NCBI GenBank assembly: GCA_964016885.1
Contig: OZ024740.1
Span: 271,870,001-271,934,000, forward strand
DNA: 64,000 nt
Origin: Eledone cirrhosa
Lineage: Eukaryota
Direction: 5' to 3'
The translations under genes were made by a program, and so were the position numbers. The notes beneath the pieces are model-generated. The model ran no database searches, was not told the origin of the DNA, and was given only the letters and a program-made list of their open reading frames with translations. Below are positions 7,772-64,000 of this stretch, in pieces. Within the stretch, counting starts at the first letter, position 1. The number at the start of each line of letters is the position of its first letter.

Positions 7772-9742
7772 GTGAGTAATTATTTTAGTTTATTTTACTT
7801 TTATTTTGTAGTGAATGGCTCTATTTTTCTATTTGAAAGCTGCTCGATTTGTGAGAATACAAAATTGCAAGAATTGTAATTTTTTGACAACCTAAAATTG
7901 TAGAAACAATAGAAAAATAATGATTTTTTAAAATACAGGCATTGAAAGAATGAAGAAAATATAATTGTGGAGTGGTGTCAGTGGTAACAGAAGCAGGGCA
8001 TACATAATCATCATCATCATCATTGTCATCGTCATTTTTAATGTCTGCTTTCCCTGTTAGCAAGGGTTGGATGGGTCCATATGAACTAAGTCAGTACTGA
8101 AGTGGAGCCATAGATTTTCCAGGCATGCCAGGGACATGTGTCTCGCTTATGTATGGTTTCTCATTCCATCGAGTGCACAGGAGAGGTTAAGGCCATACAT
8201 TTTAGGAGAGGAAATGGTTGATTTCATCAAGCCCAGTACTTATTTTATTGACTCCTTGATGGATGAAAGGGAGCAATGAAAAAAAAGGAAAAATTAATTG
8301 TTTTGTAAATCATTTTCATTAAAATATAAAAACAATGTCTTGTTATACATAGCATTTGCAATGAATATAAAGCTAAGAGAGGGTTCCTAAACTTTACAGA
8401 TATCAAGGCTTTAAAAGAAAGGATGAGATTTATTGAAACAGAGTTGAGTTATGCAAAATCATCAAGAAGCTGATTATTATTTCGTACCACAAATAACATC
8501 TAAATAATGTGAAGTTAAAATGGTTAATAACTCTCTATTTACTTCTAAAATATGTATGAATGAATTTAATACTGAACAGCTGTGAGGTTAAGATGGAGAC
8601 AGTTGTCTACATTGTCACAAGCTCACATTTTGTGATATAATCATGTCCATCATCGTACATATAGACTTTTATATCTGAGTTAACTTATTTGAAAAATAGC
8701 AGGAAGGGCATCCAGCTGTAGAAACCAAACCAAAATCAGTTCTGTATGAGTAAGACATGGTCATCTGATCTGGCTGGTCTCACAATGGAACAACTCATCT
8801 AACCCATGCTAGCATGGAAAAATGGATGTTAAACGGTGATGATGATAATGATGTCAGTTAAATTGACATTAAGAAAAGCTTACAGTTGTAAAAAATATAT
8901 GACAAGAAAAGCATTTAGCCAGTAGGCACTGTCTTAGAAAAGCTCTCCAACCCATGCAAGCATGGAAAAAAATACGTAATATGATGATGATGATGATGAT
9001 GTGAAATTTTAAAGCTATTTGATTTAATGTAGTTTGAACACTGAACTATAAAACTTAACAAAATAAATACATAATATTAAAGTGTATAGCTTAAAGATCA
9101 GAGAGTCACTTCAGGTAGAGCTGCTACTTCTCCAAATTGAGAGATCATAGCTCCGATACTATGGGCATGTCATTAGAATGTCTCAGGAAAGAATCGCTGG
9201 ACAGATTTTATGGGCAAAACCAACTGGCAAGAGATCCAGGGGTAGACCCCGGGCAAGATGGTTGGATAACATCTATAAGTTTGGCTGGTCTCGCTTGGGG
9301 ATCCAACTGGATCTGTTGGAGACGGTTGCTTCTGACAGGACCCGCTGGATGGAGTGTTTGAGGACTCTGCCCCCATGACCCTCTCAGGAATAAGTGGGTG
9401 AAGAAGAAGAAGAAGAAGTATGTTTAGAAACATGAGTAAAGTTTGAAATTGAAATAGAAATAGGTGTCACTGTAACATTTTGACTAAATAACGGGGTATA
9501 TAAAGCCACTGAACAGAAAACGATGGGTATCAACTGGTACCCATCTTTCTCTGTTTGGTGGATATATATGCCCTATTCATCATCATCATCGTTTAATGTC
9601 CATGTTCCACGCTTGTAAGACTATTTAGTCAGAATGTTACAGCAAAGCTTTTTATTTCAATGATTTTATTAAAAACATCCCGAAATACTTTCTTGTAACT
9701 TTCTGTGAATAATAGTATATGGGTTGTTTTCTAACATTGCAG

Positions 9743-10255: not shown

Positions 10256-10969
10256 ATTTAGCAGAATTGATGCAATTGTATTAAGGATCCACTGACAATA
10301 CAAAATTCCCTTTAGTGGTGTTGCTCATGTAGGATTTTGACATTTTATTATGTCACCAGTGCTTAGGGAGATTGTCATGTCTGTTTGACAGGTTTTTTTT
10401 CCAACTGGATTCCATTCCTATCATCAACCATCTTACAGAGTGTACTGGGTGCATTTATAGGGTAAACCACCAACATATTTTATCATGACACCAGCACTTA
10501 AGGAGATTGTGGTGTCTTTGTTTGACAGGTTTTTTTTACAGCTGGATTCCCTTCCTATCACTAACCATCTTACAGAGTATATTGGGTGCATTAATAGGGT
10601 AAATCACCACCACTAGGGTGGTTGTCATGTCTTTGACACAGCTAAAGAGACCTTCAAACTCTATAGGGTTAAACAACATGTGTATATATTTACAAAACTT
10701 TGTAATTTAGAGATTTGAAGGCTGGCCCTTTGAATTACAGGTACAGTCCATCTGATGGACTGTTTTGTTTGATGAGTTTTCTATAGCAGGGTGCTCTTTC
10801 TATCACCAATTACATTACAGAGTGTACTGGGTGTAGTTATAAAGTAAAGTTAGTTGAAGTAATAATCTGCCACTGAAAAATAGAGACAAATGAATTTTTA
10901 CAGAAATGTTTTTTTTACCTCTCCACTCACTATAAATATCATTGTTAAAGTCCACCCTGTATGCTGATC

Positions 10970-11335
10970 TGGCACCACAACAAAAGTACCCAGTCCATCC
11001 TGTAAGGTGACTATGATGGTGACACAAGAAAAAGCATCCAATCCACACTGTAATGTGGTTGTGCTGGTGACATACCAAAAAGCCCCCAGTTCACAGTGTA
11101 AAGTGGTCGTGTTAGTGACATGACAAAAAGCGCCCAGTTCACCCTGTAAGGTGGTCGTTTTGGTGCCATGATAAAAAGCATCCAGTTCACACTGTAACAT
11201 GGTTGATGCTACCTAATCAAAATACAGATCCATATGAGCAAGATGTGGTCATTGGACTTGACTTGTCTCATAACATGGCAACCCATCTAATCCAAGCATG
11301 CATGGAAAATGGATGTTAAACAATGATGATAATGG
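10970..11335 (+). repeat. RTE 3'-UTR-derived element with five ~47-bp subrepeats
   Basis: AAAAGCACCCAGTCCACACTGTAAAGTGGTCGTG-like units followed by the RTE terminal motif; similar array at 63850-64000. Confidence 0.75.
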
Positions 11336-11402
11336 AGATGGTATGTCATAAATTATCTTCAAGATTTTATAAATTTGCTCTTTTTCTTCTTAAATATTTC
11401 AG

Positions 11403-17615: not shown

Positions 17616-18043
17616 TCATCATCATCATCATTTTACGTCCGCTTTTTCCTGCTTGCAAGGGTGGGACGGGTCCTATTCAGCACAGTATCTCTCCATTTGT
17701 CACAGTCCTTCGTCATCTCCACCGTGAGCTTCAGCGATCTGAGGTCTGCTCTCACCACCTCCGCCCATATTTTTTGCGGTCTTCCTCTACTACGTCTTCC
17801 TTCAATTGGCATTTCCTGGCAGTTCTTCACCCATCGGTCATCCTCCATGCGCATCACATGTCCATACCATCGCAGTCTCCTCTCCTGCACACTACAATCT
17901 ACCCCTCTCAACACATCCATGCTCGGTTGTTCACGCACATTGTGACATGTTTGCCTCATTTCTCTCCAGTCGTCGCATATCCTCTGCAGTTGCTGCCCAT
18001 GTCTCACTACCATGCAGCATCGCGCTCCTCACACAGGCATCAT
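17616..18043 (-). mobile_element. Short RTE family-2 3' fragment
   Basis: Nearly identical to 54264-54720. Confidence 0.9.
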
Positions 18044-18731
18044 ATATTGATAAGATTACAAAATCTCTTTTTTGTTATATAATGGAGAGATTGGTGATAT
18101 CTCATCAAATTTCTTCAGATTTTTAAAAAGTAATCTATTTATAGATTCAAGGTCAACTTTGCCTTTCATCCATTTAAAGTCATTAAAAAAGTACCAGTCT
18201 AATACTGGGGTTCATTCTTCCTCTATATCTCTTTTACACTTCTATTCTCTCTCATTCTGTATCCTTTTCTGGATGTTATCTGCTGTATTCAGATCTGGAG
18301 AGGAGATGGGTTCCACTAGGTTTTAAAATGCTCTAGAAATGCCATATGTCAATATGGCACTCTTACAACTCCCTCAGAAGTTACGGGTTCATACATACAT
18401 TTATAGATTACTTTATTGATCTGTAAGTTTGACATGTAAAATTATTTATTGTTTCTTACCCTACGATTGAATGGTGAATATATATTTACATCTGTTTAAA
18501 TAAACTGAAACGTTAATATAAAGACCACTCCTATAAGAGTGAATAAAAATATTCATAATAATACCCATTATACTATGTTAGTACTTTAGTATGTAATATT
18601 TTCCTTGGTTTTGTTCATTGTCATTATAATTGTATCATCATCATTGTCACCATCATCATTATCACTGCCATCATTATAACTTGCATTGTTACTACTACCC
18701 TCATTATCATAACCACTGTTATCACCTACAT

Positions 18732-22579: not shown

Positions 22580-22925
22580 GAAGGCCCATGGCTTAGTGGC
22601 TAGAGTGTTGGGCTTACAATCATGAGGTTGTGAGTTTGATTCCCTGACTAGGCGGTGTGTTGTGTCCTTGAGCAAGACACTTTATTTCACGGTACTCCAG
22701 TTTACTCAGTTGTAGAAATGAGTTGCATTGTTTCTGGTGCCAAGCTGTATTGACCTTTGCCTTTCCCTTGGACAACATTGGTGGCATGGATAGTGGAGAC
22801 TGGGATGCATAGGCAACTGTTGGTCTCCACAAACAACCTTGTCTGGACTTGTGCTTCAGAAGGGAACTTTCTAGGTGCAAATACCATGGTCATACGTGAC
22901 CAAAGGGGTCTTTACCCTTAGCCTT
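22580..22925 (+). mobile_element. tRNA-CORE SINE with a different tail (ends CTTTACCCTT)
   Basis: A/B boxes + CORE-like segment, unrelated 3' body. Confidence 0.75.
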
Positions 22926-24304: not shown

Positions 24305-25444
24305 CTTTTATTGTTTTGATTTCAGTTTGGAATTGTTACATAAACTTATTTTATTGTTTTTAATTGTATTTAATTGCTATTGGTATTATTAGTTGTGAAT
24401 AGCAGAATTAGTATAGCTCAGAATATGAGAGTCAACTGAAAAGTTCACAGGCTGACCACGATACTCTCATGGAATGACCAAATGAGGTTTATTTTTTCTA
24501 CATATTCCTTGGAAAGAAATTATGCAGTTATTAATAAGAGTAGTTGAAATTAATGTATGCAAGATTTCACAGCTCTAGCCTCACTCCTTCATAGTCAGCC
24601 AACCCTCATAAATATGCCATTATCTTTATTTTACGTATATTTTCTATGACATGGATTTAACAGGTCGTCATAGCCTGGAACTAGACAGGCTGGAGAACCA
24701 TGTCTTACTTATATGTTCCATATTTAGCTTGGTTTCTACAATTGGATGCCCTTTCCTAATGCCAACCAGTTTACAAAGTATACTGGATGCATTTTATTGT
24801 GGCACAAGCATTACCACTTTACAGAGTGTATTGGGTGCATTTTATTGTTGAGAGGTTGTCATGTACTTGGGAAGACTGAACAGTCCCCTCTTCTCTATGT
24901 TGTCTTCATTTGATTGTCAACCATTTTACAGAGTGTATTGGGTACATTTTTACTGTGGTACGAACACAAGTTTTTGACAGGGCCAGAGTTTTTTTCTATG
25001 CTACCTTGTCTCAGTTTATTTGTCCACCACTTTACAGAAGGTACTGTGTGTGTTTCAATGGAACAATGACTCAAGATAGATTCTCTTATTCACTGCAGGC
25101 TAAAAGGTACCTCTCCACTCCATGTAGTTTCTGATCTCTCACTATATGCACTTTTACTGTCACAGTGCTAGTGCTGGTCGGTGGATATTTTCTCTGATGG
25201 CAAGTTGCCATGCCAGTCATCTCGATACTCTGTCATCTCTTTCATGAGGTTCAGTTTGAGATATTTAGTTGCAGCTCTTTATATTTTGAGTTCACTTTGG
25301 TTTTCATCCTTACGTGGTCGATAAAATAAAGTACCAGTCACGCACTGGGGTCGATTTAATCGACTTTGCCCTCCCCCAAAATTGCTGCCCTTCTGCCTAT
25401 ATAAGAAACAATTATTATTATTATTATCATCATCAGCATCATCA

Positions 25445-25520: not shown

Positions 25521-28500
25521 CATCATCATCATCATCATCATCACCGTTTTACGTCCGTTCTTCCACGCTAGCATGGGTTAGACGGGTTGTCCTGTTGTGG
25601 GCAGTGTCTGGTCGGCTGACCATGCCTTGCTCATACAGGAACTGATCTGGCTTGATTTCTACAGCTGGATGCCCTTCCTAACACCAACCTCATTTACAGT
25701 GAGTGCTGGGTGCTTTTTCGTGGCGCCTACACGTCCACTTTACAGTGTGGGCTGGGTGCTTTTTTGCCGTGGCACCTCCACGACCACCTTGCGGTGGGGG
25801 GGGGGGGGCATATTGTTTATATGCTTCAGCATGTACCCATGGGAGGTCGGGTACCCTGTATTACTGCGTGACGCCAGAAGTCACGGTCGTGTGTCATTGA
25901 CTTTGAGAGGTGTAGTTGGGTAAGGTCGGCTTTTATCACCTCATCCCAAGTCATCTTGGGTCTCCCCACTCCGCGGTTTCCATCAACTTCTAGTGCTCTG
26001 CACCTTTTTATGCAGCTGTCATCCTTCATACGCATCACATGTCCATACCAGCGTAACCGCCTCTCCTGCACGCAGCATTTGATTCCTCTTATGCTCAGTC
26101 TCTCTCTCAATTCATTTATGCTTTGTCGTTCACGTATATTACTGTTACACATCCATCGGAGCATGCAGGCTTCGTTTCTCTCTAATCTACGTAAGTCTTC
26201 CACCTTCAGCGCCCAGGTCTCACTACCATGCAACATCGCTGTTCGGATACACGCATCATACAGTCTGCCTTTCATTCTGAGGGAGAAGCCTTTTGCAGCT
26301 AGCAGTGGTAGTAGTTCCCTAAACTTCTTCCATCCCGTTCTTACCCTAGTTATTGTACTTTCTGAGCACCCACCTCCGTTGCTAATTCGGTCACCTAGGT
26401 AGCAGAAGCTGTCTACTGTTTCTACAGGGCCCTCCCAGAGATTGGTGGTACTTGTTTCCTGTGGCTGTTTGCTTGCTGTTTCAGCACAGCTGCTGCATGT
26501 GAATCCTACATTCTTAATTAAGCTTCCTGAGATCCCGCTACATCTCTTGTGTACCCATTGTTTGCATTTGGGGCAGAGAATGGAGTTCCTACCTACACCT
26601 TTCCTACATACTGAGCAAGGCCATTTCCCTGAGGGGATCTGGGTTCTGTTTTCTCGTCTACTTATAAGGACCTTAGTCTTTGTCATGTTGACTTTGAGGC
26701 CCTTTCTCTCTAGTCCCTGCTTCCAGGTTTGGAATTTATTCTCTAGTTCTACCATAGATTCAGCTATGAGTGCGAGGTCATCAGCATACAGGAGTTCCCA
26801 TGGGCATCCGGTCTTAAACTCCTCCGTTATTGCCTGCAGGACTATGATGAACAGGAGAGGGCTAAGAACAGAGCCCTGGTGGACCCCAACCTGTACGCTA
26901 AATTCCTCGCTATACTCATTGCCAATCCTAACTTTGCTGACTGCTCCCCTATACATGGCTTGTACCGCTTTCACAAGCCATTCATCTACTCCTAGTTTTC
27001 TAAGAGCCCACCAGATTACTGCACGTGGAACTCTGTCAAAGGCTTTCTCAAGGTCGACAAATGCCAAGTAGAGTGGCTTACTTTTAGCTAGGTACTTTTC
27101 CTGTAATTGCCTCACAAGGAAGAGCGCATCAGTGGTGCCTTTCCCTGGAACAAACCCAAATTGCATCTCGTCTATATTCACCCGGTCCCTAATCAGCTGT
27201 GCTATAACTCTTTCTGTTACTTTCATGACCTGGTCCATCAACTTTATACCTCTATAGTTTCCTCTATCTAGTGCATCGCCTTTACCTTTGTAGCAGTTGA
27301 CAATGATGCTACTGCACCAATCTTTTGGTATGGCCCCCTCTAGTATTACCTGGTTAACGATACGTGTGGTTATAGTGTGACCTACAGACCCAGATGCCTT
27401 CAGCATCTCGGCAGCTATACCCGATGGACCGGTTGCCTTCCCTATCTTCATATCTCTGATTGCCTTACTTACTACGCTGCCGCTGACTTGTACTGCTGGT
27501 CCCTCTATAGGGTCTACGTGGGGTAGGGTCTCTTCTTCCCATGCATTCTCCTCATTTAGTAATCTATCATAATGACTCTTCCATGCATCTTTCTTCTCAG
27601 CACTTGTGAGGGCAAGCTCACCTTTATCATTCCGGATACACTTCTCTCCAATGACATCACAACTATCTCTGACACACTGCCTCGCAATCTTGAATACCTC
27701 CTGTTTCTGGTCCTCACGTTGTAAAACATGCTTGAATTTTCTATCCTCTGCTTCCCTCCTAGCTAAGTATACTTGTCGCCTAGCTTCCCTCTTGGTCTCT
27801 ATGTAATGTACCCTGCTCCCCCCGTTCTTCCATTCTTTCCATGCCTGTCTCTTGGCCTTGACTGCTTCATCTACCTTATTGTTCCACCACCAAGTCACTC
27901 TCCTCCTGCTTGAGGTCTTACTCCAGCCACAAACCTCATCCGTCGCCTCTAGTAAGTTATTTTTTAGGAACTCCCAGTTCTCTTCTACGTTAAATGTCTC
28001 TATCTGTTCTTCTTTACTGTCGTAGGCGTTGAGTAAAATATCTTTAAATCTGTTACTGGTTGAGGGGACTTTCAGCTTCCAGATCTTTCTTCTCCAGGTT
28101 GGCCTCTGTTTCAGGGCTCGTCTAGTTCTGACCGTGAGGTCGCTGACAACTAAGCTATGTTGGGATGTACATTCCTCACTAGGGAAGGCTTTTGTGTTTA
28201 CGACCGTCCATCTGTCACGTCCTCTGATGAGGATAAAATCTAACTGACTAGAGTGCTCCCCTGATCTATAGGTGATCAGGTGGTTGTCGGGTTTTTTAAA
28301 GTTTGTGTTACATATCGACATGTCATTGGCGTCGCAGAATTCTAGAAGTCTGAATCCTTCCTCATTCCTTGTGCCAACTCCATGGCCTCCATGTACTCTA
28401 TTGAAGCCGTCGCAGTGTTTACCTACGTGTCCGTTAAAATCTCCTGCAATGATTAGGAAGTCCTTGTCGTCTGTTAGAGCAGTAGTGTGTATTAGGGACT

Positions 28501-31500
28501 CGTAAAACCTATCCTTAAGTTCGTCTGGCAGCCCCGATTGGGGTGCGTAAGCTGATATTATTGTGGTAATTGTCTTATTCAGGACTAGTCTGAGTTTAAT
28601 GATTCTTGCATTTACCCTGTACACTGAGATTACTTTATCTACCCACTTGTCAGCTAATAGTATACCTACACCACCCATCCCATCGTCATTTCCCACCCAG
28701 AAAAATTTGTAGCACTGGCTTTTTCCTACAAGGACTCTAGCAGACCCTCCTCTCCATCTAGTCTCTTGCACACAGCATACATCAACTTCCTTTCGCTCTA
28801 GCATTTCTACGATTTCTCCTGCTCTTCCTTTCATTGAGCCTACATTGATGGTACCAACTCGGAGTTTTGGGCATTTGTCGACACTCGTAGGGGAGGGTCT
28901 CTGGGTTGGCGCTTCACGTGGGTGCTTGGTAGCTCGCAGATTCATATTTCATCTATTGATTCAGAGTTGCTCGTGTATTCCCAGCTCATCCATCCATAAC
29001 GGTGGGAAAATTGAGGGCTAGAAGGACAGTGGTGGTGGGGTAATGGCAGGGTGTGTTGGGATGCGCCAGAGGAGGAGAGAGTTAGTTAGGCAGGTAGTAG
29101 CAGCAGCAGCAGTGGAAATGGCATGCTAGGTTTGATTGGTCGAATAGACTATGGTGGTGAGTGGGGGTGGGGGGGAGGGAAATTGTGAGGTAGGAACTGA
29201 GGGTCGCATGGTAAATATCCAAGTTAATACTACATCAGTAAAATTAACAATAATAACGTCATGAAAAAAGCTACTAAGAGAAACCCTCGAAAATTTATCG
29301 CTAATACAGCAGGGAAAATTTAACGCTAATACAGCAGGGAACATCATAATATTAACGACATGAAAAAGCTACTAAGAGAAACCCTCGAAAATTTATCGCT
29401 AATACAGCAGGGAAAATTTAACGCTAATACAGCAGGGAACATCATAATATTAACGACATGAAAAAGCTACTAAGAGAAACCCTCGAAAATTTATCGCTAA
29501 TACAGCAGGGAAAATTTAACGCTAATACAGCAGGGAACATCATAATATTAACGACATGAAAAAGCTACTAAGAGAAACCCTCGAAAATTTATCGCTAATA
29601 CAGCAGGGAAAATTTAACGCTAATACAGCAGGGAACATCATAATATTAACGACATGAAAAAGCTACTAAGAGAAACCCTCGAAAATTTATCGCTAATACA
29701 GCAGGGAAAATTTAACGCTAATACAGCAGGGAACATCATAATATTAACGACATGAAAAAGCTACTAAGAGAAACCCTCGAAAATTTATCGCTAATACAGC
29801 AGGGAAAATTTAACGCTAATACAGCAGGGAACATCATAATATTAACGACATGAAAAAGCTACTAAGAGAAACCCTCGAAAATTTATCGCTAATACAGCAG
29901 GGAAAATTTAACGCTAATACAGCAGGGAACATCATAATATTAACGACATGAAAAAGCTACTAAGAGAAACCCTCGAAAATTTATCGCTAATACAGCAGGG
30001 AAAATTTAACGCTAATACAGCAGGGAACATCATAATATTAACGACAATATGTAGGCTAAAATACCTTCGTAGATTAGGTGGATGGCTGGCTGGGAAAATT
30101 TGAATCAACTCTAGTGGTACATTTTAGCAGAGAAGAATGGCAAAGTGTCTTATCTCTTCAATATTTTCAGATTGAATGAATTAGGTTAAAGACAGGGTAG
30201 TAAGCCTTAAAGAAGTGCATAGAGAGGGGGGGGGGGTAGGAACTGAGGGTCGCATGGTAAATAACTGAGAGAGATACAATAGGATTAGAATACCGCATGG
30301 TAAATATCCAAGTTAATAAGTTAATACTACATCAGTAAAATTAACAATAATAACGTCATGAAAAAAGCTACTAAGAGAAACCCTCGAAAATTTATCGCTA
30401 ATACAGCAGGGAAAATTTAACGCTAATACAGCAGGGAACATCATAATATTAACGACATGAAAAAGCTACTAAGAGAAACCCTCGAAAATTTATCGCTAAT
30501 ACAGCAGGGAAAATTTAACGCTAATACAGCAGGGAACATCATAATATTAACGACATGAAAAAGCTACTAAGAGAAACCCTCGAAAATTTATCGCTAATAC
30601 AGCAGGGAAAATTTAACGCTAATACAGCAGGGAACATCATAATATTAACGACAATATGTAGGCTAAAATACCTTCGTAGATTAGGTGGATGGCTGGCTGG
30701 GAAAATTTGAATCAACTCTAGTGGTACATTTTAGCAGAGAAGAATGGCAAAGTGTCTTATCTCTTCAATATTTTCAGATTGAATGAATTAGGTTAAAGAC
30801 AGGGTAGTAAGCCTTAAAGAAGTGCATAGAGAGGGGGGGGGGTAGGAACTGAGGGTCGCATGGTAAATAACTGAGAGAGATACAATAGGATTAGAATACC
30901 GCATGGTAAATATCCAAGTTAATAAGTTAATACTACATCAGTAAAATTAACAATAATAACGTCATGAAAAAAGCTACTAAGAGAAACCCTCGAAAATTTA
31001 TCGCTAATACAGCAGGGAAAATTTAACGCTAATACAGCAGGGAACATCATAATATTAACGACATGAAAAAGCTACTAAGAGAAACCCTCGAAAATTTATC
31101 GCTAATACAGCAGGGAAAATTTAACGCTAATACAGCAGGGAACATCATAATATTAACGACATGAAAAAGCTACTAAGAGAAACCCTCGAAAATTTATCGC
31201 TAATACAGCAGGGAAAATTTAACGCTAATACAGCAGGGAACATCATAATATTAACGACAATATGTAGGCTAAAATACCTTCGTAGATTAGGTGGATGGCT
31301 GGCTGGGAAAATTTGAATCAACTCTAGTGGTACATTTTAGCAGAGAAGAATGGCAAAGTGTCTTATCTCTTCAATATTTTCAAATTGAATGAATTAGGTT
31401 AAAGACAGGGTAGTAAGCCTTAAAGAAGTGCATAGAGAGGGGGGGGGGGGGTAGGAACTGAGGGTCGCATGGTAAATAACTGAGAGAGATACAATAGGAT

Positions 31501-31704
31501 TAGAATACCGCATGGTAAATATCCAAGTTAATAAGTTAATACTACATCAGTAAAATTAACAATAATAACGTCATGAAAAAAGCTACTAAGAGAAACCCTC
31601 GAAAATTTATCGCTAATACAGCAGGGAAAATTTAACGCTAATACAGCAGGGAACATCATAATATTAACGACATGAAAAAGCTACTAAGAGAAACCCTCGA
31701 AAAT
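25520..31704 (-). mobile_element. Apparently full-length RTE-clade LINE (family 1): tandem-repeat 5' region, single ORF, about 300-nt 3' UTR, (ATG)n tail
   Basis: Intact ORF; (CAT)n at 25520; the block interrupts one SINE whose head ends at about 25520 and whose B-box resumes at about 31705. Confidence 0.85.
25826..28945 (-). CDS. RTE LINE ORF: AP endonuclease + reverse transcriptase with inserted PHD finger, 1039 aa, uninterrupted
   Basis: APE motifs GTINV, QETRW, YAPQ, GDFNGH, LDFIL, SQH; RT motifs FVDLEKAFD, QGSVLSPLLF, YADD, YLG; RTE-type C-terminus RRLRWYGHV..GRP..TW. Confidence 0.97.
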   Translation of the reverse strand: MNLRATKHPREAPTQRPSPTSVDKCPKLRVGTINVGSMKGRAGEIVEMLERKEVDVCCVQETRWRGGSARVLVGKSQCYKFFWVGNDDGMGGVGILLADKWVDKVISVYRVNARIIKLRLVLNKTITTIISAYAPQSGLPDELKDRFYESLIHTTALTDDKDFLIIAGDFNGHVGKHCDGFNRVHGGHGVGTRNEEGFRLLEFCDANDMSICNTNFKKPDNHLITYRSGEHSSQLDFILIRGRDRWTVVNTKAFPSEECTSQHSLVVSDLTVRTRRALKQRPTWRRKIWKLKVPSTSNRFKDILLNAYDSKEEQIETFNVEENWEFLKNNLLEATDEVCGWSKTSSRRRVTWWWNNKVDEAVKAKRQAWKEWKNGGSRVHYIETKREARRQVYLARREAEDRKFKHVLQREDQKQEVFKIARQCVRDSCDVIGEKCIRNDKGELALTSAEKKDAWKSHYDRLLNEENAWEEETLPHVDPIEGPAVQVSGSVVSKAIRDMKIGKATGPSGIAAEMLKASGSVGHTITTRIVNQVILEGAIPKDWCSSIIVNCYKGKGDALDRGNYRGIKLMDQVMKVTERVIAQLIRDRVNIDEMQFGFVPGKGTTDALFLVRQLQEKYLAKSKPLYLAFVDLEKAFDRVPRAVIWWALRKLGVDEWLVKAVQAMYRGAVSKVRIGNEYSEEFSVQVGVHQGSVLSPLLFIIVLQAITEEFKTGCPWELLYADDLALIAESMVELENKFQTWKQGLERKGLKVNMTKTKVLISRRENRTQIPSGKWPCSVCRKGVGRNSILCPKCKQWVHKRCSGISGSLIKNVGFTCSSCAETASKQPQETSTTNLWEGPVETVDSFCYLGDRISNGGGCSESTITRVRTGWKKFRELLPLLAAKGFSLRMKGRLYDACIRTAMLHGSETWALKVEDLRRLERNEACMLRWMCNSNIRERQSINELRERLSIRGIKCCVQERRLRWYGHVMRMKDDSCIKRCRALEVDGNRGVGRPKMTWDEVIKADLTQLHLSKSMTHDRDFWRHAVIQGTRPPMGTC

Positions 31705-31706
31705 TT
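29261..31706. repeat. Hierarchical tandem array: 98-bp monomer (8+3+3+1.4 copies) separated by a thrice-repeated ~312-bp spacer (higher-order period ~606 bp)
   Basis: Monomer starts 29261, 29360, 29458...29948; spacers start 30046, 30653, 31259; copies nearly identical. Confidence 0.97.
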
Positions 31707-34053: not shown

Positions 34054-34742
34054 GTAAAAAAAATCAAAAATTGCTAAGTATCATTTTTTTCTTTTTTTTT
34101 TATGCTAAAAAAGAGATCACAGTTCCAGTACTACGGGCATGAAGTTAGAATGTCCCAGGAAAGAAATCACTGGACAGATGTTATGGGTAAAATCAACTGG
34201 CAGGAGACCCAGGGGTAGACTCCAAGCAAGATGGCTGGATAACATCCACATTGTTTCTGACAGGACTCCGTTAGAAGGAGTGTTTGAGGACTCTGCCTCT
34301 TCTCAGGAATAAGTGGGAGGAGGAAGAAGAAGGTGGTAGTAGTAGTGATGAAGAAGATGAAGGTGAAGATGAAGAAAAAAAGAAGCAGCAGCAGCTGAAT
34401 ATCATTGTTCATCATCATCATCATCTTATTTATCAGTTAATTTTTGTTTTGCTTCTGTCTTTTTTGGTTTTTATTTTGGTATCCAGGGATTATACATATC
34501 AGCTCAACCACAACTGAGAGCATAATAATGCAATTCATAATCTGTGAACGTTTTATTTTAACCTCATTTATGCCAGTAAATGACCAAGGATAGGATAGAT
34601 TGTACCATTTCTCATGAGAATATTATATTATTTATTTATGATAGTTAAGCATAAATTTTTCCACTAATCATTCTTATAAATGATTTTATATAAGTTTAGC
34701 TGTGAATGAATTGATTGATGAATATAGAAATAAAAACTTGAA

Positions 34743-37003
34743 ATATAGAAGACACGAAATGTAGAAGACACAATATGTAGAAAACACAATATGTAGAAAA
34801 CATGAAATGTAGAAAACATGATATGTAGAAAACACGCAATGTAGAAAACATAAAATGTAGAAAACACGCAATGTAGAAAACACAATATGTAGAAAACATG
34901 ATATATAGAAAACACAAAATGTAGAAACACAATATGTAGAAAACATGAAATGTAGAAAACATGATATGTAGAAAACACGCAATGTAGAAAACATAAAATG
35001 TAGAAAACATGATATGTAGAAAACACGCAATGTAGAAAACACAATATGTAGAAAACATAAAATGTAGAAAACACAATATGTAGAAAACACAATATGTAGA
35101 AAACACAATATATAGAAAACACGAAATGTAGAAAACACAAAATGTAGAAACACAAAATGTAGAAACACAATATGTAGAAAACACAATATGTAGAAACACA
35201 ATATGTAGAAAACATGAAATCTAGAAAACATGATATGTAGAAAACATGATATATAGAAAACACAAAATGTAGAAAACACAATATGTAGAAAACATGAAAT
35301 GTAGAAAACATGATATATAGAAAACACAATATGTAGAAACACAATATGTAGAAAACATGAAATGTAGAAAACATGATATAGAGAAAACACAATATGTAGA
35401 AACACAATATGTAGAAAACATGAAATCTAGAAAACATGATATATAGAAAACACAATATGTAGAAACACAATATGTAGAAAACATGAAATCTAGAAAACAT
35501 GATATGTAGAAAACATGATATATAGAAAACACAAAATGTAGAAAACACAATATGTAGAAAACATGAAATGTAGAAAACATGATATATAGAAAACACAAAA
35601 TGTAGAAACACAATATGTAGAAAACATGAAATGTAGAAAACATGATATGTAGAAAACATGATATATAGAAAACACAAAATGTAGAAAACATGATATATAG
35701 AAAACACAAAATGTAGAAACACAATATGTAGAAAACATGATATATAGAAAACACAAAATGTAGAAAACATGATATATAGAAAACACAATATGTAGAAAAC
35801 ACAATATGTAGAAAACACAATATGTAGAAAACACAAAATGTAGAAACACAATATGTAGAAAACATGAAATCTAGAAAACATGATATGTAGAAAACATGAT
35901 ATATAGAAAACACAAAATGTAGAAAACACAATATGTAGAAAACACAATATGTAGAAAACACAATATGTAGAAAACACAAAATGTAGAAACACAATATGTA
36001 GAAAACATGAAATCTAGAAAACATGATATGTAGAAAACATGATATATAGAAAACACAAAATGTAGAAAACACAATATGTAGAAAACACAATATGTAGAAA
36101 ACACAATATGTAGAAAACACAAAATGTAGAAACACAATATGTAGAAAACATGAAATCTAGAAAACATGATATGTAGAAAACATGATATATAGAAAACACA
36201 AAATGTAGAAAACACAATATGTAGAAAACATGAAATGTAGAAAACATGATATATAGAAAACACAAAATGTAGAAACACAATATGTAGAAAACATGAAATG
36301 TAGAAAACATGATATATAGAAAACACAAAATGTAGAAAACACAATATGTAGAAAACACAATATGTAGAAAACATGATATATAGAAAACACAAAATGTAGA
36401 AAACACAATATGTAGAAAACATGAAATGTAGAAAACATGATATGTAGAAAACACGCAATGTAGAAAACATGCAATGTAGAAAACATGCAATGTAGAAAAC
36501 ATGAAATGTAGAAAACACAAAATGTAGAAAATATGCAATGTAGAAAACACGATATGTAGAAAACACGAAATGTAGAAAACACGCAATGTAGAAAACATGA
36601 AATGTAGAAAACACGCAGTGTAGAAAACATGAAATGTAGAAAACATGAAATGTAGAAAACATGATATGTAGAAAACATATGTAGAAAACACGAAATGTAG
36701 AAAACACGAAATGTAGAAAACACGAAATGTAGAAAACACGATATGTAGAAAACACTAAATGTAGAAAACACGAAATGTAGAAAACACGAAATGTAGAAAA
36801 CACGAAATGTAGAAAACACGAAATGTAGAAAACACGAAATGTAGAAAACACGAAATGTAGAAAACACGAAATGTAGAAAACACGATATGTAGAAAACACT
36901 AAATGTAGAAAACACGAAATGTAGAAAACACGAAATGTAGAAAATATACAATGTAGAAAACATGAAATGTAGAAAACACAAAATGTAGAAAACATGAAAT
37001 GTA
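34743..37003. repeat. Minisatellite, ~140 units of 16 (15) bp: ATGTAGAAAACA + variable 4-mer
   Basis: Direct reading; local 143-bp higher-order period around 35800-36150. Confidence 0.97.
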
Positions 37004-37037
37004 TTTCTTTAATTAAGTTTGACAAAATGTTTTGTAG

Positions 37038-37112
37038 GTATTCAGTGCTCAACCAAATCTGTTAGGAAACCAACAAAATTTATCTTTCAGTCAAGGATCA
37101 ATTACATTACCA
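37038..37112 (+). CDS. ZNF236: ZNF236-like exon w11 (75-nt linker exon VFSAQPNLLGNQQNLSFSQGSITLP)
   Basis: tttgtag acceptor, perfect GTAAGT donor, open frame, phase 0-0; not required for frame. Confidence 0.68.
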
Positions 37113-40512: not shown

Positions 40513-40853
40513 TCATCATCATCATTTCATTTTACGTCCGCTTTTCCCTGCTTGCAAGGGTCGGACGGGAACTGATTCTGGCATGATTTCTACAGCTGGA
40601 TGCCCTTCCTAACACCAACCTCATTTACAGTGAGTGCTGGGTGCTTTTTTGCCGTGGCACCTCCACGACCACTTTGCAGTGGAATGATAGGGATCCCAGT
40701 CCCTATCATCTCATTTCTACAGCTGAGTAAACTGGAGCAATGTGAAATAAAGTCTCTTGCTCAAGGAAACAATACATCACCCGGTCCGAGAATTGAACTC
40801 ACAACCTTTCGATTGCAAGGCCAATGCTCTAACCACTAAGCCATGTACCTCCC
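40513..40853 (-). mobile_element. Same SINE, subfamily with RTE family-2 terminal tip
   Basis: Reverse complement of the 47902 copy. Confidence 0.87.
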
Positions 40854-42738: not shown

Positions 42739-44370
42739 ATTATTTGGTCCTGTATATACTGATTCCAGACCAAAACCAGTTCTTCACCATATTGTAGTCG
42801 ACCTGGTGGTGTGTTCCATTAGGGCAGTGCCAAGTCCAGCACTGTGATGCCTTGTGCTCACCAAGTGTGTTAGCAAGCACCATGTCATTATAACTGGAAA
42901 ATTCAAGCAGGCGTAGCCCTTGCTTGTAGGTTACGGCATTACATATTAAGTCCACAGAATTCGTGCCAGTCTTTCACTGCATCCTCACCCACCTTGTCAT
43001 TCCAGTCTCCCTGTATAATAAGGATATCTTTCTTATTAACCTTGTTGATAATGTTTTGGAGTTTTGTGTTGAATTCTTCCACCTGATCATCCTCATAGTC
43101 CGTTGTTGGTGCATGTACCTGTGAAACTGTAATGTTGAATGGTGCTGCTCGAAGGTGGATAGTGATGAGCCTGCTGGATACTGGGCGGCACTCAAGTACA
43201 GCATTCTTGATGTTCTTGTTGACAAGAAAACCTGCCCCATGCACATGTTTGTCAAGTTCTCCACTGTAACAGAGTTCATGGCCTTCATTGGTGAGGTGTT
43301 CACTGAAATGTTTCCATCTGACCACACAGAGTCCCACGATGTGCCAGTTGCATCTCTCCAGTTCATGTGTGAGTTCCTGCAGTTTGCCATGTTGGGCAAG
43401 TGTTCTCAAGTTCCATGTGGCAAATGTGATGTTCTCCCTTATACAAATCTTTTTTGACGAGATTTCAGTTGCATATTTAACACCTCTGCCCTGATGTACG
43501 ACAGATGATGTGGTCCTTGTTAACCCGGCCGACGATTGAGCCAGTATTGACGTTGGTAATTCGTTCATTTTCATGCAGTGTGTGCCTAGTGGTGCCCTTC
43601 CCATTCCTAGCTTAACCACAGCCGAATTCCTCCAGCATGTGGCCATTGTAGTTTGTCTGGGAAATCATCCTTCCTGGCCGGTGACCTGCGTCAGGAGCTC
43701 CTTCACCCAGTGGTACCTCTTGGACGTAACTTCTGCTAGATATGGCATGGAGATCAGCGCTGAGAAAACCAAGCTGATGACAAACAGCACAAAACTAATA
43801 GAGAGAAGGATCACAGTCAGTGGTCAAGAGCTGGAGACTGTGACACAGTTAAAATACTTTGGCGCCATCATCAGTCAAGGGGGATCAAAGCCAGAGGTCA
43901 TTTCAAGGAGTGCTCTTACAACCACAGACTTGCTAAGCTGAAAGCTCTCTGGAGAGAGATAAAAACACCACTCTCAGATGCAAAATAAAAATCCTGTGTG
44001 AGTTGGTCCTATCCATCTTTCTATACGCATCATGGTCCTTGACTGCTGAACTGCAAAGAAAGAGTCAAACAGTGAAGATGAGCTGCTATAGAAGAATCCT
44101 GGGAATCTCCTACACAGAACACATCACGAACGAGGAGGTCTGCAAAAGAATCACCCAGCATGTGAACTACTTTGAAGATCTGCTGACTACAGTGAAGAGG
44201 AGGAAGCTGAGGTGGTATGGGCATGTAACAAGATTGGACGGCCTCTCTAAGGCAATTCTCCAAGGAACAGTGCAGGGAAAGAGTAGGCAGGGCAGACAGA
44301 GGAGGGAGTGGATAGATAACATAGTTGAGTGGACAGGAAAGAACTTTGCCACAACCCAAGCACCAGATTT
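42739..44370. mobile_element. Decayed RTE/BovB-like LINE with inverted 5' part (APE on -, RT C-terminus on +)
   Basis: 42939-43646(-) ATWNLRTL..GLCVVRW..HAPT..QGDWN; 43720-44370(+) YGMEISAEKTK..KYFG..RRKLRWYGHV..GRQRREWIDNI. Confidence 0.85.
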
Positions 44371-45456
44371 TGGAACAATACTCCATTGTGAGTCATTCCT
44401 GGGTTTTGTAGAAAGTCAGTAATTTTTGGAAGTTGAAATATTTTCTGGTTCTTTTGATGCAGTCCTAGATATGTTAAGGATGTTTGTTCACCAAGAGAAA
44501 TTGTTCCAAATGCTAGTAACAGGGACTGTAGAATTTATGTATGTGCAGATACCACCTTTCAGAGTGAAGTACACTGATATTAAAGAAGTGGAGGGAGAGT
44601 TGTCTAGCAGGCTTAGTTATAGTTTTTAGTATTTTGGGGAAGTGTAAAGAGTGATGGCACATCAAAAGTAGCATTTCTTTCAAAACAAGTTGACAGTATC
44701 TGTATATTGGATAGGAATATGAAAAGGAATCACTCTTAAGATTTTCTCTATTCCAAGAAAATATTAAACTTCTTGTGTGCTTTATAGCTCCCTAATCATC
44801 AAGAACAAAAACATGCCAGTTGTCTTGAAATGTCAAGTTTATGACTAGTGAATTCTGCTGACTTACACATACGGATTAGAAACCTAGAACCTAACAAAAA
44901 AGCAAACTCTAAAGCTATGGATAATGCAAAAAACCTATGAAAGGATCATGTTAAACATCACATGGTGAGATAGAAAAATCGCCGAATGGATAAAAACAAA
45001 AAAAAAACAAACAAACAAAAGTTCACATCTTAGAAATCATTAGCAAAGTAAAACGGAAGTGAATGGGTCACATTGCCAAAATGACTGACAATAGATGGAC
45101 CACCTACATCACCTGGACCCCATGAGGTCACACAAGAAGCCAAGGCCACCAGATGACCAGGTGGCAAGACAGCCTTGAAAAAATTGAAAAATTTTGACCA
45201 TGAATAGTTGAAGATTGGCAAGAAGTCCAACAAGTAACTTTGCCTGCTGTTTGCAAGGAGTTTTTATCAGACAGGTAAGTAGTCAGGCAAAGGTAATTGT
45301 ATCCGTGTACTCTGATTTCCCTTGTAAAATTAAATATTGCATTTAGAAGTATGATAATAGGCAATGAAAGTATTAAGACAGGTAAATAGTTAAAAAGGTT
45401 CTGCGCTACTGGTTTATTCAACTTTTTTTTCTCTCTTAAATTCTTTTTTTATACAG

Positions 45457-45955: not shown

Positions 45956-47313
45956 TTAAAACGCTGCACCACTCACTATGTAGTCCAAGAACTTAAAATT
46001 TACTATGGCCATTGTGTGGCAACACATTTATATTTGCTTCTTTAGCTTGCTTAGATGGCAACAGGTTTTACTGCTACTTAATAGTAAAATCGAAATCAAA
46101 AGAAAGAGTATCCAGTTGTAAAAAAAATTGCTTCAACAAGTCAAGGGCTTACATGTGGTTGTTCAAACAGCTAGAAATAGTAGCCAAATCTTTCTCAAAT
46201 CGTTTTCAATAATATTCTATTATCTTTTAAAAAGGCAAAGCAAATTGGACAATGTAGTCCTAGAAAGATACACTATGTTTAAATAATAAGTCAGGATAAG
46301 TCACAGTTGGAATGCCTTTAATCATTGTTTTGTTGCTTAAACAGTGCTCACACGGGTTTAAACAACAATAACTCCAATTTAAAATAGGTGTAAGACATTA
46401 AATTTGTTAAGATAAGTTTCTTTTGTTATCTTGATTTAATGTTCTTCCTAATGCATTGTTTGGCTTTCAAAATTATTTAAATCTTTTCTAATTTAACATG
46501 TAATGTAAATTAGAAAATAAAATATACATCGCCCACACTCTAAAATCATCACCATCACTGTACACCCCTTCCACACCACTATCACCATCACCCCATCTAA
46601 GACTATCACTCTTTAACTATTTCCACCATCACTATATGTCACCTAAAATTCTGACACTCCTGTGAGTATTGCCCCTATGCTATTGACCACCCTGTCCATA
46701 CCCCCACCACTATCATCCCTTAGTAGCTATACTCATCATCACTAACACTCCTTCTATTTCTTGACACATGATGATCCCACTTCCTACTCATCACCCTGTC
46801 AATTCCACACTTGTCATTCACCTATAATGTCATACTTATCTTTCTTCTCCCCCTCTCCCATTGGACATGGAGGGCTCTTCAATTGGGACAAGGGTCAACA
46901 ACTTCTCTTGTACTGGTGCCACGAAAATGCATCCAGTACACCCTATAAGATGGTTGGCAATAGGAATGACACCCTGCTGTAGAAACCATGCCAAAAAGGG
47001 TCAAGTGGACCCTTCAGTTGTGTCAATGGGACCACAACCTTTCTAGTATTGGTAATCTACATGATAAATGTATCCAGTACACTCTGTAAAGTGGCTGGTG
47101 ATAGGAAGGGCATCCAATCTTAGAAAACTTGCCAAACAAAGGGTCGAGAGGACTCTCTAACTTTGTTAAAGACATAACAAGCTCCCTAGTGCGTATGTGC
47201 GTATATTCGGAGTCAACATTTTGATAATTTTCCCCAACTTCAAATTCTACGTAAATATGGTTTGGATATTTTACCGTTTCTCAGAGATAAAATAGTGGGG
47301 TCAGCTTATATAC

Positions 47314-47901: not shown

Positions 47902-48244
47902 GGAGGCACATAGCTTAGTGGTTAGAGCATTGGCCTTGCAATCGAAAGGTTGTGAGTTCAATTCTCGGACCGGGTGATGTGTTGTTTCCTTGAGCAAGCC
48001 ACTTTATTTCACATTGCTCCAGTTTACTCAGCTGTAGAAATGAGATGATAGGGACTGGGGTCCCTATCATTCCACTGCAAAGTGGTCGTGGAGGTGCCAC
48101 AGCAAAAAAGCACCCAGCACTCACTGTAAATGAGGTTGGTGTTAGGAAGGGCATCCAGCTGTAGAAATCAAGCCAGAATCAGTTCCCGTCCCACCCTTGC
48201 AAGCAGGGAAAAGTGGACGTAAAATGATGATGATGATGATGATG
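47902..48244 (+). mobile_element. Same SINE, subfamily with RTE family-2 terminal tip
   Basis: Head and core nearly identical to the 1005 copy; ends CCCGTCCCACCCTTGCAAGCAGGGAAAAGTGGACGTAAAA(TGA)n. Confidence 0.88.
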
Positions 48245-54263: not shown

Positions 54264-55022
54264 CATCATCATCATTTTACGTCCGCTTTTCCCTGCTTGC
54301 AAGGGTGGGACGGGTCCTATTCAGCACAGCATCTCTCCACTTGTCACGGTCCTTTGTCATCTCCACCATGAGCTTCAGCGATCTGAGGTCTGCTCTCACC
54401 ACCTCCGCCCATGTTTTTTGTGGTCTTCCTCTACTACGTTTTCCTTCAACTGGCATTTCTTGGCACTTCTTCACCCATCAGTCATCCTCCATGCGCATCG
54501 CATGTCCATACCATTGCAGTCTCCTCTCCCGCACACAACAACTTATCCCTCTCAGACACAGTTTCTCTCTCAACACATCCATGCTCGGCCGTTCACACAC
54601 ATTGACATTGCACATCCAACGGAGCATGCTTGCCTCATTTCTCTCCAGCCGTTGCATATCCTCTGCAGTTGCTGCCCATATCTCACCACCATGCAGCATC
54701 GCGCACCTCACACGGGCATCATATAACCGGCCTTTCGTACGCAGGGAGAAACCCTTCTTCGTCAGCAGAGGAAGCAGCTCCCTAAACTTCTTCCAACCCG
54801 GCCTTATTCTAGATACTATAGCCTCGGAACACCCTCCTCCCATGCTAATCTGATCTCCTAGGTACCGGAAGCTATCCACCACTTCTATAGCACCCACCTG
54901 CATTTGAAAAACGTGTCTATCAATGCGACTTCTACTGTCAAATTTCCCTGTACATCTACTGCATACGTATTTCTCCCTACCTGTTAGTTTGCCTGCTATC
55001 CCACTACATCTCTTGTGTACTC
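54264..55022 (-). mobile_element. 5'-truncated RTE family-2 copy (ORF ends [13 protein letters not shown] directly at the tail)
   Basis: ORF pieces 54277-54474 and 54478-54903; PHD remnant VHKRCSGI..VCSRC at the 5' end. Confidence 0.9.
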
Positions 55023-58250: not shown

Positions 58251-60051
58251 GAGGTAGTGAGCATTAGAACCTCTCCTCGAAAGGTGATATATACTTGAAT
58301 ATAAGTCGACCCCACTAGTTTATGTCTGAGAAATGGGCAAAAATCCAAACATTATGTAGAATTTGAAGTTGATGAAATTTGTTAAACTATTGACCCCAAA
58401 TATAAGCTGACCACCTTCTACCATCGACTTTTTTGGTCACATGTTCATTGGGTTATATACAGTAATATAATATCATCATCATATCCCTTTAGTTTCAATT
58501 TTCCATACTAGCATGGGTTAGAGGATTTCTACCATTGTCAGACAAGTCAGATCAGGTGAATGTGTCTTGCTCATACGGAATTGTTTCTGGCTTGGATCCT
58601 ACGGCTGGAAACCCTTCCTAATGCCAACCACAATACATGGACTGGTTTTTATCATGGCACCAATATATATATATGTGCGTACATACATGCATACATATTC
58701 ATATATGTAGAAGGTTGTATGATTATAATTTCACCACAATCTATTTATCACCTAATTAATAGCTGTTATACGTATTTCAGTGGCATCTGTTACATAATTG
58801 TAAATCTTAAGATACAATCTCTTCAGACAGCTCTCACTTTTATGAATATTAGTAATGTAATTTTGTGATATATCAATGGGGAGGCTGGTATATCAATGAT
58901 TTACCTTGGTAATTAGTTAGTATAAACAGCTGAAACCTGCTTTAAATTTGTTTGGATAGCATTCTGTTTGTGTGTGTGTGTGAGGGGGTGATGGGGGAGA
59001 GAGTGAGAGAGAGTGGAGGGAGCATTGCTTATACCTTTCTAGGCTTGTCCTTTTCTTATTTAAGATAGTTAAATATGATTTGAGGGAGATTTGGCTGCAG
59101 CTTTTAACAGGCTAAGTGACCATGTAGAGACACACTTGTTGATTCAAAGTGAAATTCCTGTACACAGGGATGGTTCTGCCACTAAGCTCACAAATAGCTT
59201 AGACCACATTGAAATAGAAGGCCATCTGACTGATTAGCAAAGATTCAGTACACTGTGACTGCTAACCTGTAGACATGCTGTTCCTTCATTATGTATCTTC
59301 TTCCTACTACAACAACCTTTGCTTTTCTTGTAATCCAGGCCTATTTAATAGTTATGTTGCCCCCTTCATCACCCAAATCCTACATCTTGCACTAATCCTT
59401 ATACTAATCCTTGCAAGCAGGGAAAAAGCGGACGTAAAATGAAATGAAATGAAATGAATCCTCTCCAGAATCTTTGTTTTTCAATATGTGTATAGTTTGG
59501 ATAATTCTGCAGTGGATATTAATACTCTTGATCTTAGTCATTTTTTCTCTGAATTCACTACTTCCTGTTTTTACTTTTTAGTCTCCCTCCATCACAAATG
59601 ACTTCCACTGTCAGCATGTGTCACTCCTTTTTTGTTTTGTCTTTATTATACCAGCTTAGCTGCCTCTGCTCTACATATTGACCGATGCTTTTTAAAAATA
59701 AGTTTAGCCACTCTTAGCTCACTTGCACTGTTCTTTAACACTAATAGAAAAAAGAAAAGCATCCAGTCTACACTGTTAGTGCTTGGAAGGGCATCCAGCT
59801 GTAGAAACCAAGCCAAAATACAGATCCGTATGAACAAGACCTGACTTGTCTCATAATGTGACAACTCATCTAACACATGCAAACATGGAAAATGGATGTT
59901 AAACGATATTGATGATGATGATGATGGTGGTGATGAAAGAAATTCTAAGGTTCAGATGCATGTGGTAAACATTTATCCTGAATTTACTGCATCTAATAAT
60001 TGTGGTGTGTCTGTAACTATATATCAATTTTGTAATTTGAATTTTTCATAG

Positions 60052-62575: not shown

Positions 62576-64000
62576 TACTCCTGATTTTGATTGTTTTCAG
62601 TGAAACCTGTAAGAAATGTTAAGAAATACAGAAAAATAAAGAAAACAAAGAAAGGAGTAGGTGCTAAAGTAATGAAAACCTTGAAGAATATATATCTGTA
62701 AAGGATATATATATTTGTTTTTGAGGGCCAGTATTTTCATTACATGAAATCCCTAAATTAACTAATACAGACACACATGTACACACACACATACACATAT
62801 GTATATATATATATATATTTATTTATTATAATTAATTAGGGCAGTGGAGTTAGCACTGACAGAAAAGAGCTTGACTTCCCATTTCCGAGCTCCAAATCCT
62901 GTCTGGTTAATTTTGCCCTTCCTCCCTCAAGTGGATCGATAAATATGGAGTACAAGTATTAATATTGACTGAGAGTTATTTCAAGCAACAGTACCATCTT
63001 GCTTTACAAAATTGCCCTGGCCTTGTGCCTGTGCTTAATCAATTCAATTAGGATCATTGTTGTTATTACATTTTTTTTTTTAACATAAAAAATAATCATG
63101 TGCTTTTCAGAATTTCTTTGGAATTTTGAGAAATATGTTAACTCCAGATTGTTGTTGCACTCCATCTCTGCTTTGATAAAGTGGCAACTATACACAGCAG
63201 ATTTTAAATTTACTGTACTATATACATCTCTTAAACATACAAGAACATTCATGCGTACACAAATATCAAAAACTTTCTAAAACTGTTGTTGACACAAATC
63301 TTGCCAGCTGCCTTAAGTTGTACAAAGAACTAACAAAAAAGACAGTAAAACAGCAACAAAAAATGATATGGACTATGATTAATACAGATTAATTGTTTCA
63401 GTAAAAATTAAGAAGAAAACAATATTTGTTGGAAATATATATATTTGTTGTTGTTATTGATTAACCCAAGCTAGGTCAGCACTGATTTAGCTGACCTCTC
63501 ATCAAAGGTATTCTAGCTTTGACTTTCCTGTCATTTATGTTTCTACAACTAAATTATTGAATGGCTTTTCTTTTTTTAGGATTGTAGTGTGTGATATTTA
63601 GGGGAGATTTAACTGGTATTTCAAACAACCCAAGTGACTATATAGAGGCTTTCTAGTTGGATTGTGTGTGTATTTGGTGATTCAGTAGAATTGTGGTTTA
63701 CTGAGGAAGGTACCAATATTAGCACTCTATACTATAGCAGAATGTATACATTAAGAAGAACAAAACGAGGTTTCACATGTAAAACCTTGTGAAGCGTACA
63801 TACAGTATGCCCCCCCCCATGAGGACAGGCCAAAGTAAATACATCCAGTGAAGCCCCCTGCCCACACTGTAAATTGATCGTGATGATGACATGGCCAGAA
63901 GTGCCCAGCCCACACTGTAAAGTGGTCGTGTAGGTGTCACAACAAAAAGCACCCAGCCCACACTGTAAAGTGGTTGTGTAGGTGCCTTGACAAAAAGCAC

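Follow-up and report, generated by a model that had tools for sequence, protein, structure and literature searches.

Does a SINE that takes over the 3′ end of another LINE also change the enzyme that drives it? The question is raised by two tRNA-headed SINE copies with the same composite 3′ end, at 47902-48244(+) and 40852-40513(−), in which part of the 3′ UTR of one RTE family (F1) is followed at a CCCGT pentamer by the terminus of a second RTE family (F2). Both copies lie in a single 64-kb stretch of Eledone DNA (37% GC), referred to below as the window. Here, we describe the anatomy of these chimeric copies, identify the source of each part, weigh the routes by which the join could have formed, and consider which LINE drove the product.

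Anatomy and descent of the chimeric copies

The features of the two chimeric copies, subdivided for the copy at 47902, and of the related SINE that retains the older 3′ part were as follows.

47902-48244, + strand: chimeric SINE copy 1, junction CCCGT at 48185-48189
40513-40852, − strand: chimeric SINE copy 2, CCCGT at 40569-40565, with the same 48-nt collapse as copy 47902
47902-47972, + strand: tRNA-derived SINE head; Pol III promoter boxes A (47911-47921) and B (47956-47964)
47973-48044, + strand: central domain, recognized by BLAST to SINE copies at 22580, 49558, 37963, and 51198
48045-48070, + strand: perfect inverted repeat of 11 bp marking the older join of SINE and F1 UTR (fold, −19 kcal/mol; z, −3.46)
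48073-48189, + strand: 117-nt relic of the F1 RTE 3′ UTR, one 48-nt tandem unit collapsed
48185-48189, + strand: CCCGT junction, assignable to either parent (sequence comparison)
48185-48224, + strand: terminal 40 nt of the F2 RTE, a complete two-helix stem-loop (8/8 diagnostic sites, folds, and pair counts)
48225-48244, + strand: (TGA)n tail, then TA microsatellite (sequence)
1005-1444, + strand: parent-type SINE retaining all of the F1-derived part (1175-1427), CCCGT at 1335 and 1388, and a 6-nt TSD

The chimeric elements were short (about 340 nt), noncoding, and dispersed, with common ends (n = 2, plus the parent type); their 3′ end, common to a LINE, was followed by simple repeats, as in tRNA-derived SINEs (SINE2), and the repeats of copy 40513 start with TGAAA. 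A TSD was found at copy 1005 (6 nt); both chimeric copies are set in TA-rich repeats and have no clear TSD. Copies 47902 and 40513 aligned without gaps with 10 differences in 323 nt (96.9% identity; 3.1% apart), and all that their flanks had in common was microsatellite and other interspersed-repeat sequence. With flanks otherwise unrelated, the pair did not arise by segmental duplication of a single locus. The SINE copies sit between exons of a ZNF236-like C2H2 zinc-finger gene at 2723-62456(+) (e.g., 14775, 21941, 42240, 52948, and 61986), so their position is likely intronic; a search with the gene named ZNF236-like relatives and no cephalopod.

The head gave an Rfam tRNA match at 47911-47968 (26.7 bits; E, 0.0018) that fell below the gathering score of 29; ARAGORN found no tRNA gene there, and a box and pattern scan found no T4 run inside either chimeric copy. 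We infer that the chimeric master would have been Pol III competent. At gathering score, Rfam returned no match across the whole window, which thus holds no catalogued ribozyme. The central domain, putatively CORE-like, recurred in at least four other SINE copies (22580, 49558, 37963, and 51198) with different 3′ parts and tails. The 11-bp hairpin was also present at 40684-40709 and 1148-1172, and full-length matches to the hairpin linker occurred only at 1143, 40714, and 48040, that is, in the three related SINE copies; it is possibly the fold-back scar of an earlier capture.

The match of the chimeric copies to copy 1005 ran from the head through the central domain and hairpin linker into the F1 3′ UTR, where it broke off at CCCGT. 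The preliminary description had them sharing most of that UTR, which overstated the match, as 117 of the 253 nt of F1-derived sequence in copy 1005 are retained. Absent are the 3′-terminal 88 nt and a 48-nt tandem unit flanked by 14-nt repeats, the loss of the unit being, as read from the sequence, a second short-homology deletion in the chimeric lineage. The F1 terminal (recognition) hairpin lay within the lost 88 nt; what had been called the old tail kept as a relic is accordingly an internal UTR segment, and the functional old end is gone. The relic (48073-48189) was 94.7% identical to F1 LINE 25530 and 96.6% to SINE copy 1005.

Both chimeric copies carried a G>C transversion at head position 33, where copy 1005 and the outgroup copy 22580 agree, and two more common differences that were transitions. 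Trees built without the more decayed copies, and with the F1_3720 row as a long branch, paired the chimeric copies at 90/84 (head) and 80/85 (relic), moderate values under the strong-support bar, and grouped the relic with the UTRs of F1-25530, F1-41056, and 1005 at 87/90. The common junction, the 48-nt collapse, and the head transversion indicate that both copies came from one master, and the shared hairpin linker and single-nucleotide differences indicate that this master descended from a 1005-type SINE, the F1-tailed form being the older state. With CCCGT as the fixed junction in 2/2 chimeric copies of the window, no variation of the join among copies was seen, and the earlier claim that the chimera had amplified held: two copies, unrelated flanks, same junction, one master. 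The evidence on the chimera comes from these two copies. Two exact-match scans of prokaryotic genome contigs gave 0 additional copies.

Two RTE families and the source of the tail

The donors of the relic and of the tail were both represented in the window.

25547-29230, − strand: F1 LINE, near full-length, source family of the relic; ORF 25826-28945 and 279-nt 3′ UTR
54264-55020, − strand: F2 LINE, 5′-truncated, one in-frame stop, ORF running into the tail
17616-18046, − strand: second F2 LINE copy, 5′-truncated (sequence comparison)
59409-59459, + strand: isolated F2-type tail (33-34 nt) with (TGAAA)n repeats, an extremely 5′-truncated insertion

The F1 ORF (25826-28945) was intact, with 1040 codons encoding an endonuclease, a reverse transcriptase (RT), and a PHD finger; Pfam matches (RVT_1 and Exo_endo_phos), the single ORF, and the short 5′ UTR are those of an RTE-clade LINE. 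The highest-identity match of its protein, among 120 listed of 502, was an Octopus bimaculoides entry (61%). Four further, more diverged F1 copies carried the same 3′ UTR; that this UTR might be non-LINE sequence was ruled out, as it directly follows the ORF in 5 F1 copies. The F2 ORF runs into its tail, so F2 is without a 3′ UTR and the captured 40 nt are its last ORF codons. F2 and F1 shared 58% amino acid identity over 242 aa (DNA K2P distance, 0.39); the F2 fragments do not include the RVT_1 or endonuclease regions and are placed with RTE by that identity to F1. In a window-only tree, F2 and fragment 3922 stood apart from F1 at 100/100, and both families ended in a (GAT)n 3′ short tandem repeat tail. 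A protein search with the C-terminal 65 aa of F2 gave 18 candidates, none of which passed.

Other repeats were recorded around these elements. A distantly related, rearranged LINE at 42780-44422 (about 25-32% aa identity to F1) has its endonuclease part on the minus strand and its C-terminal part on the plus strand. A tandem array of 98-nt units (29228-31706; 96-98% identical) with interruptions about every 606 nt adjoins the 5′ end of the F1 LINE, and a long low-complexity tandem array (34660-37060) gives rise to spurious minus-strand ORFs.

The preliminary description had placed the junction at CCCGT, correctly in both copies (48185-48189, and 40569-40565 on the minus strand), and had read the sequence beyond it as the F2 terminus. 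Eight positions distinguish the F1 tails (1005 and 25530) from the F2 tail at 54264, and at these the F2 base was found at 8/8 in copy 47902 and 7/8 in copy 40513, the eighth in the latter being a private G. In the 35 nt that follow CCCGT, F2-54264 differed from each chimeric copy at 1 position, and the two closest F1 tails differed at 8 to 9. A 29-nt chimeric-tail probe with up to 3 mismatches hit exactly 4 sites in the window (48185, 40569, 54314, and 17670) and gave matches in 0/100 shuffles. A rough binomial model puts the probability that an F1 tail drifted to the chimeric pattern at about 1e-6 or less, and a simple 53-nt deletion within F1 followed by drift was ruled out, as the tail is that of F2 at 8/8 and 7/8 sites. 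A LINE that natively carries the composite 3′ end was likewise looked for; the F2 tail stood on 0/5 aligned F1 LINE copies.

The two families’ tails were close relatives, differing at 8 of 40 bases (about 80% identity). A two-helix model over 13 tails paired 93% of cells, against 27 to 44% in slid controls, a figure inflated by the derivation of the model from the very sequences scored; folds of single tails gave z scores from 0.15 to −2.11, with 5/6 no better than shuffles. For these two reasons, the support drawn from a conserved two-helix structure is moderate. The differences included one inner stem pair changed at both bases, from A-U in F1 to U-G in F2, and the loop, CUAG in F1 and CAAG in F2 and the chimera. 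A tail-type peptide pattern terminated 40/120 homologous proteins examined, and 9 and 6 more matched two shifted frames, the patterns being loose and without a control set. Because this motif ends so many homologous ORFs, the tail is taken as an old, widely shared trait of this LINE lineage, common to F1 and F2.

Formation of the join

At roughly even odds (about 0.5), we consider that the F2 RT, having copied the end of its own RNA, switched at CCCGT to the RNA of an F1-tailed SINE, and that F2 then mobilized the product. Target-primed reverse transcription of F2 would begin at the (GAU)n end and copy the 35-40-nt stem-loop; the cDNA end, complementary to CCCGU, would re-anneal at the upstream CCCGU of the SINE RNA, 53 nt 5′ of the in-register site; and synthesis would continue through to the tRNA head, giving a Pol III-competent master, which would then amplify. 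A single event of this kind would account for both the 53-nt offset and the change of tail. If only joins that kept the hairpin could spread, a near-minimal captured piece would be expected; the junction was placed at the 5′ edge of the tail’s outer stem, which puts the captured piece near the smallest whole recognition element. When the two parents were joined at random, junction homology of at least 5 nt arose in just 721 of 102,758 cases (0.7%), and the join was thus probably homology guided. The orientation of the chimera (SINE 5′, LINE 3′, same strand) is that described for RT template-switch chimeras in PMC13174262, and template switching has been proposed for SINE tail change in the relevant parts of PMC4824008, PMC7245038, and PMC4758252, the shuffling of modules being treated in PMC11481361.

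The template switch named in the preliminary description fared unevenly: a chimera with a fixed junction stands, but a switch specifically is not established by it. The parent has two CCCGT sites 53 nt apart (1335 and 1388), and the microhomology is therefore no proof of an inter-family template switch; according to the data given in PMC4245944, moreover, microhomology is usual at truncated LINE 5′ junctions. Against a one-step jump stand the CCCGT direct repeat in the parent together with another repeat-bounded deletion in the lineage, and the lone 34-nt F2 tail at 59409, evidence that F2 insertions can be very short. In favor of the jump, no intermediate forms were seen in the 64-kb window.

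Three other routes were weighed, the first two of which would lead to the same sequence. A nesting at the DNA level, possible though rather doubtful, would have a 5′-truncated F2 of 40 nt inserted into a genomic F1-tailed SINE, its 5′ end annealed at CCCGT; Pol III transcripts would then first carry the F2 tail, and copies primed there would drop the old end. The product is identical, an ultra-short F2-type insertion is present at 59409, and new inserts in HeLa cells were reported to have microhomology at their 5′ junctions in 55% (L1) and 77% (ZfL2-1) of cases (PMC4245944, in the part on junctions), yet the route requires a hit on a small target in a transcribable copy plus priming at an internal tail, and no nested master was seen in the window. 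Less likely again is a history in two steps, with slippage between the CCCGT repeats removing 53 nt of the F1 UTR and the tails exchanged separately and in register by recombination, gene conversion, or an RT jump. The parent’s pentamers at 1335 and 1388, the loss of the 48-nt unit between 14-nt repeats in the same lineage, the small internal deletions in other copies of the 14-copy F1-UTR alignment, and the roughly 80% identity of the tails all fit; two rare events would be needed, however, and neither intermediate was among the 14 aligned UTR copies.

A composite end acquired ready-made, from a recombinant LINE (F1 UTR plus F2 tail) or from a bipartite (5′ UTR plus 3′ end) derivative of F2, seems very improbable. 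The relic motif does occur both in the 5′ UTRs of RTEs and in the tails of bipartite hagfish SINEs, and the 5′ end of F2 is not present in the window. Set against this, the relic, at 94.7% identity to an F1 3′ UTR, grouped with the F1-25530, F1-41056, and 1005 UTRs (87/90); copy 1005 and the chimeras have the hairpin linker and SINE-specific bases in common; and none of the 5 F1 LINE copies bore the F2 tail. In bipartite RTE-derived SINEs, both parts come from one LINE by internal deletion; here, the relic is F1 and the tail F2.

The driver LINE and earlier tail exchanges

A change of driver from F1 to F2 is what we infer from the composite tail, and the earlier statement that the SINE had changed its driver goes beyond the tail itself, which is composite as described, to a change that the tail does not establish, since the two tails fold alike and differ at 8/40 bases. 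With tails about 80% identical and alike in fold, either RT might use either tail. The exchange may thus be real but functionally neutral, both RTE proteins recognizing a common hairpin and F1 perhaps still driving the chimera, which would have spread as a shorter variant; this holds independently of how the join formed, and we give it a tentative place, well below even odds. The two-helix fold is the same in both tails; the peptide motif at the end of 40/120 homologous ORFs marks the tail as old and widely shared; and F1 has a young intact copy, whereas the two longer F2 copies carry damage and have diverged more from each other than the chimeric pair has. Pointing the other way, a covarying stem pair and the loop are among the 8 differences, which both chimeric copies retain, and L2-clade elements discriminate by the loop: in zebrafish L2, a stem-loop swap abolishes retrotransposition, with specificity carried by the loop (PMC4176376, experiments on L2). 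These loop-specificity data come from L2 and not from RTE; no such test for RTE elements was found in the literature searched, where the specificity experiments encountered concern the L2 clade.

Escape from a dead LINE was not supported as the reason for the chimera, as F1 has an intact ORF. In simulations of 400 copies at a divergence of 1.6%, close to the distance of the chimeras from their master, just 1 to 11% kept that ORF intact, so F1 was probably active at the time of the chimera or later. Non-CpG divergence was 7/305 (2.3%) in the chimeric pair versus 20/370 (5.4%) in the F2 pair (Fisher p, 0.048), a comparison with a single pair per group and with F2 subfamilies possible.

The relic also bears on the origin of the F1 3′ UTR. 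A 34-nt stretch of it (48134-48167) matched the hagfish RTE-4_EBu 5′ UTR at 27/34 positions, by eye and without a computed alignment, and RTE-2_EBu was similar. In F1, the motif lies in the 3′ UTR (25547-25825, minus strand) and is absent from the 5′ UTR, and a decayed tail-like stretch occurs at the end of the F1 ORF. As the relic carries an RTE 5′-UTR motif, the F1 3′ UTR looks captured and may be a bipartite module, an idea based on a by-eye match in one window; if so, the SINE swap may be the latest of several tail replacements. A fuller series, in which F1 took the bipartite module as its 3′ UTR and kept a decayed tail at the end of its ORF, the SINE took the module, and the SINE then defected to a second RTE family with just a 40-nt hairpin while F1 was active, is conceivable but rather doubtful. 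If it were true, eight bases, one of them in the loop, would define driver specificity, and the two tails would be a natural swap pair for RTE protein-RNA recognition. Repeats carrying only the motif (47104, 37324, 10555, and 10418), considered as possible RTE 5′ ends, had no endonuclease match beside them. The motif GGAAGGGCATC was absent from the Kojima 2018 supplement, and the motifs were not found in the portion of the PMC9115989 supplements covered.

Further tails and UTR units were noted in the window. A different, older SINE at 51198-50863(−) with the same central domain represents a further acquisition of a tail, as it ends in an F1-like RTE tail and lacks the UTR segment, and an older tail at 8027-8075(−) has the F2-type inner stem pair. 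Relatives of the F1 UTR repeat unit, variable in tandem number and some of them tailless, were found at 63850-64000, 10980-11340, 24700-24960, 46880-47150, and 10400-10650; to judge by these copies, the unit expands and contracts.

Replacement of one RTE tail by another with a relic left behind has already been published. In the hagfish SINE2-1_EBu, RTE-2 sequence has supplanted the 3′ part of a SINE tailed by RTE-4, and an RTE-4 relic is left, the exchange being ascribed to recombination or template switch (PMC7245038, account of SINE2-1_EBu). The Eledone chimera resembles SINE2-1/1B_EBu and SINE1-1_EBu, as portrayed there, in having a relic of one RTE upstream of the end of another. In hagfish SINE2-1/1B_EBu, however, the relic is 5′-UTR sequence, the incoming piece is a whole bipartite module, and the two RTE tails are unlike (PMC7245038, same account); in Eledone, a relic that is proximately 3′ UTR is followed by no more than the final 40 nt of an ORF, and the two tails are closely homologous. 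In the squid IdioSINE2 and in ERE4B, the tail was replaced by that of another RTE, with a short remnant of the earlier RTE-like sequence (23 bp in IdioSINE2); these are old events known from consensus sequences, and the relevant part of PMC5786205 resolves neither junction nor parent copy, whereas here parent, both donors, and junction lie in one 64-kb window and the chimera is young (about 2-3% divergence). Mosaic bivalve SINEs and MetaSINEs, as presented in parts of PMC11481361 and PMC4824008, also combine one central domain with several LINE tails, but their switches are between LINE clades (CR1, L2, and Nimb), in contrast to two families of one lineage with 58% protein identity. The octopus CORE-SINEs OR1 and OR2 are named in passages of PMC4824008 and PMC4758252. 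OR1 and OR2 are alike in that a tRNA head and central domain are common to families with different tails. No paper on this particular subfamily was found in the literature searched, and it may have a catalogue entry already.

The survival of SINEs beyond their LINE partners is ordinarily explained by tail exchange, and most earlier cases are old and were drawn from consensus sequences. The Eledone chimera is young and resolved to the base, with two products beside the parent and the donors, and it formed while the old partner was probably still active. It adds an example and leaves the concept of tail exchange unchanged, and its two 40-nt tails provide a test pair for RNA recognition by RTE elements.
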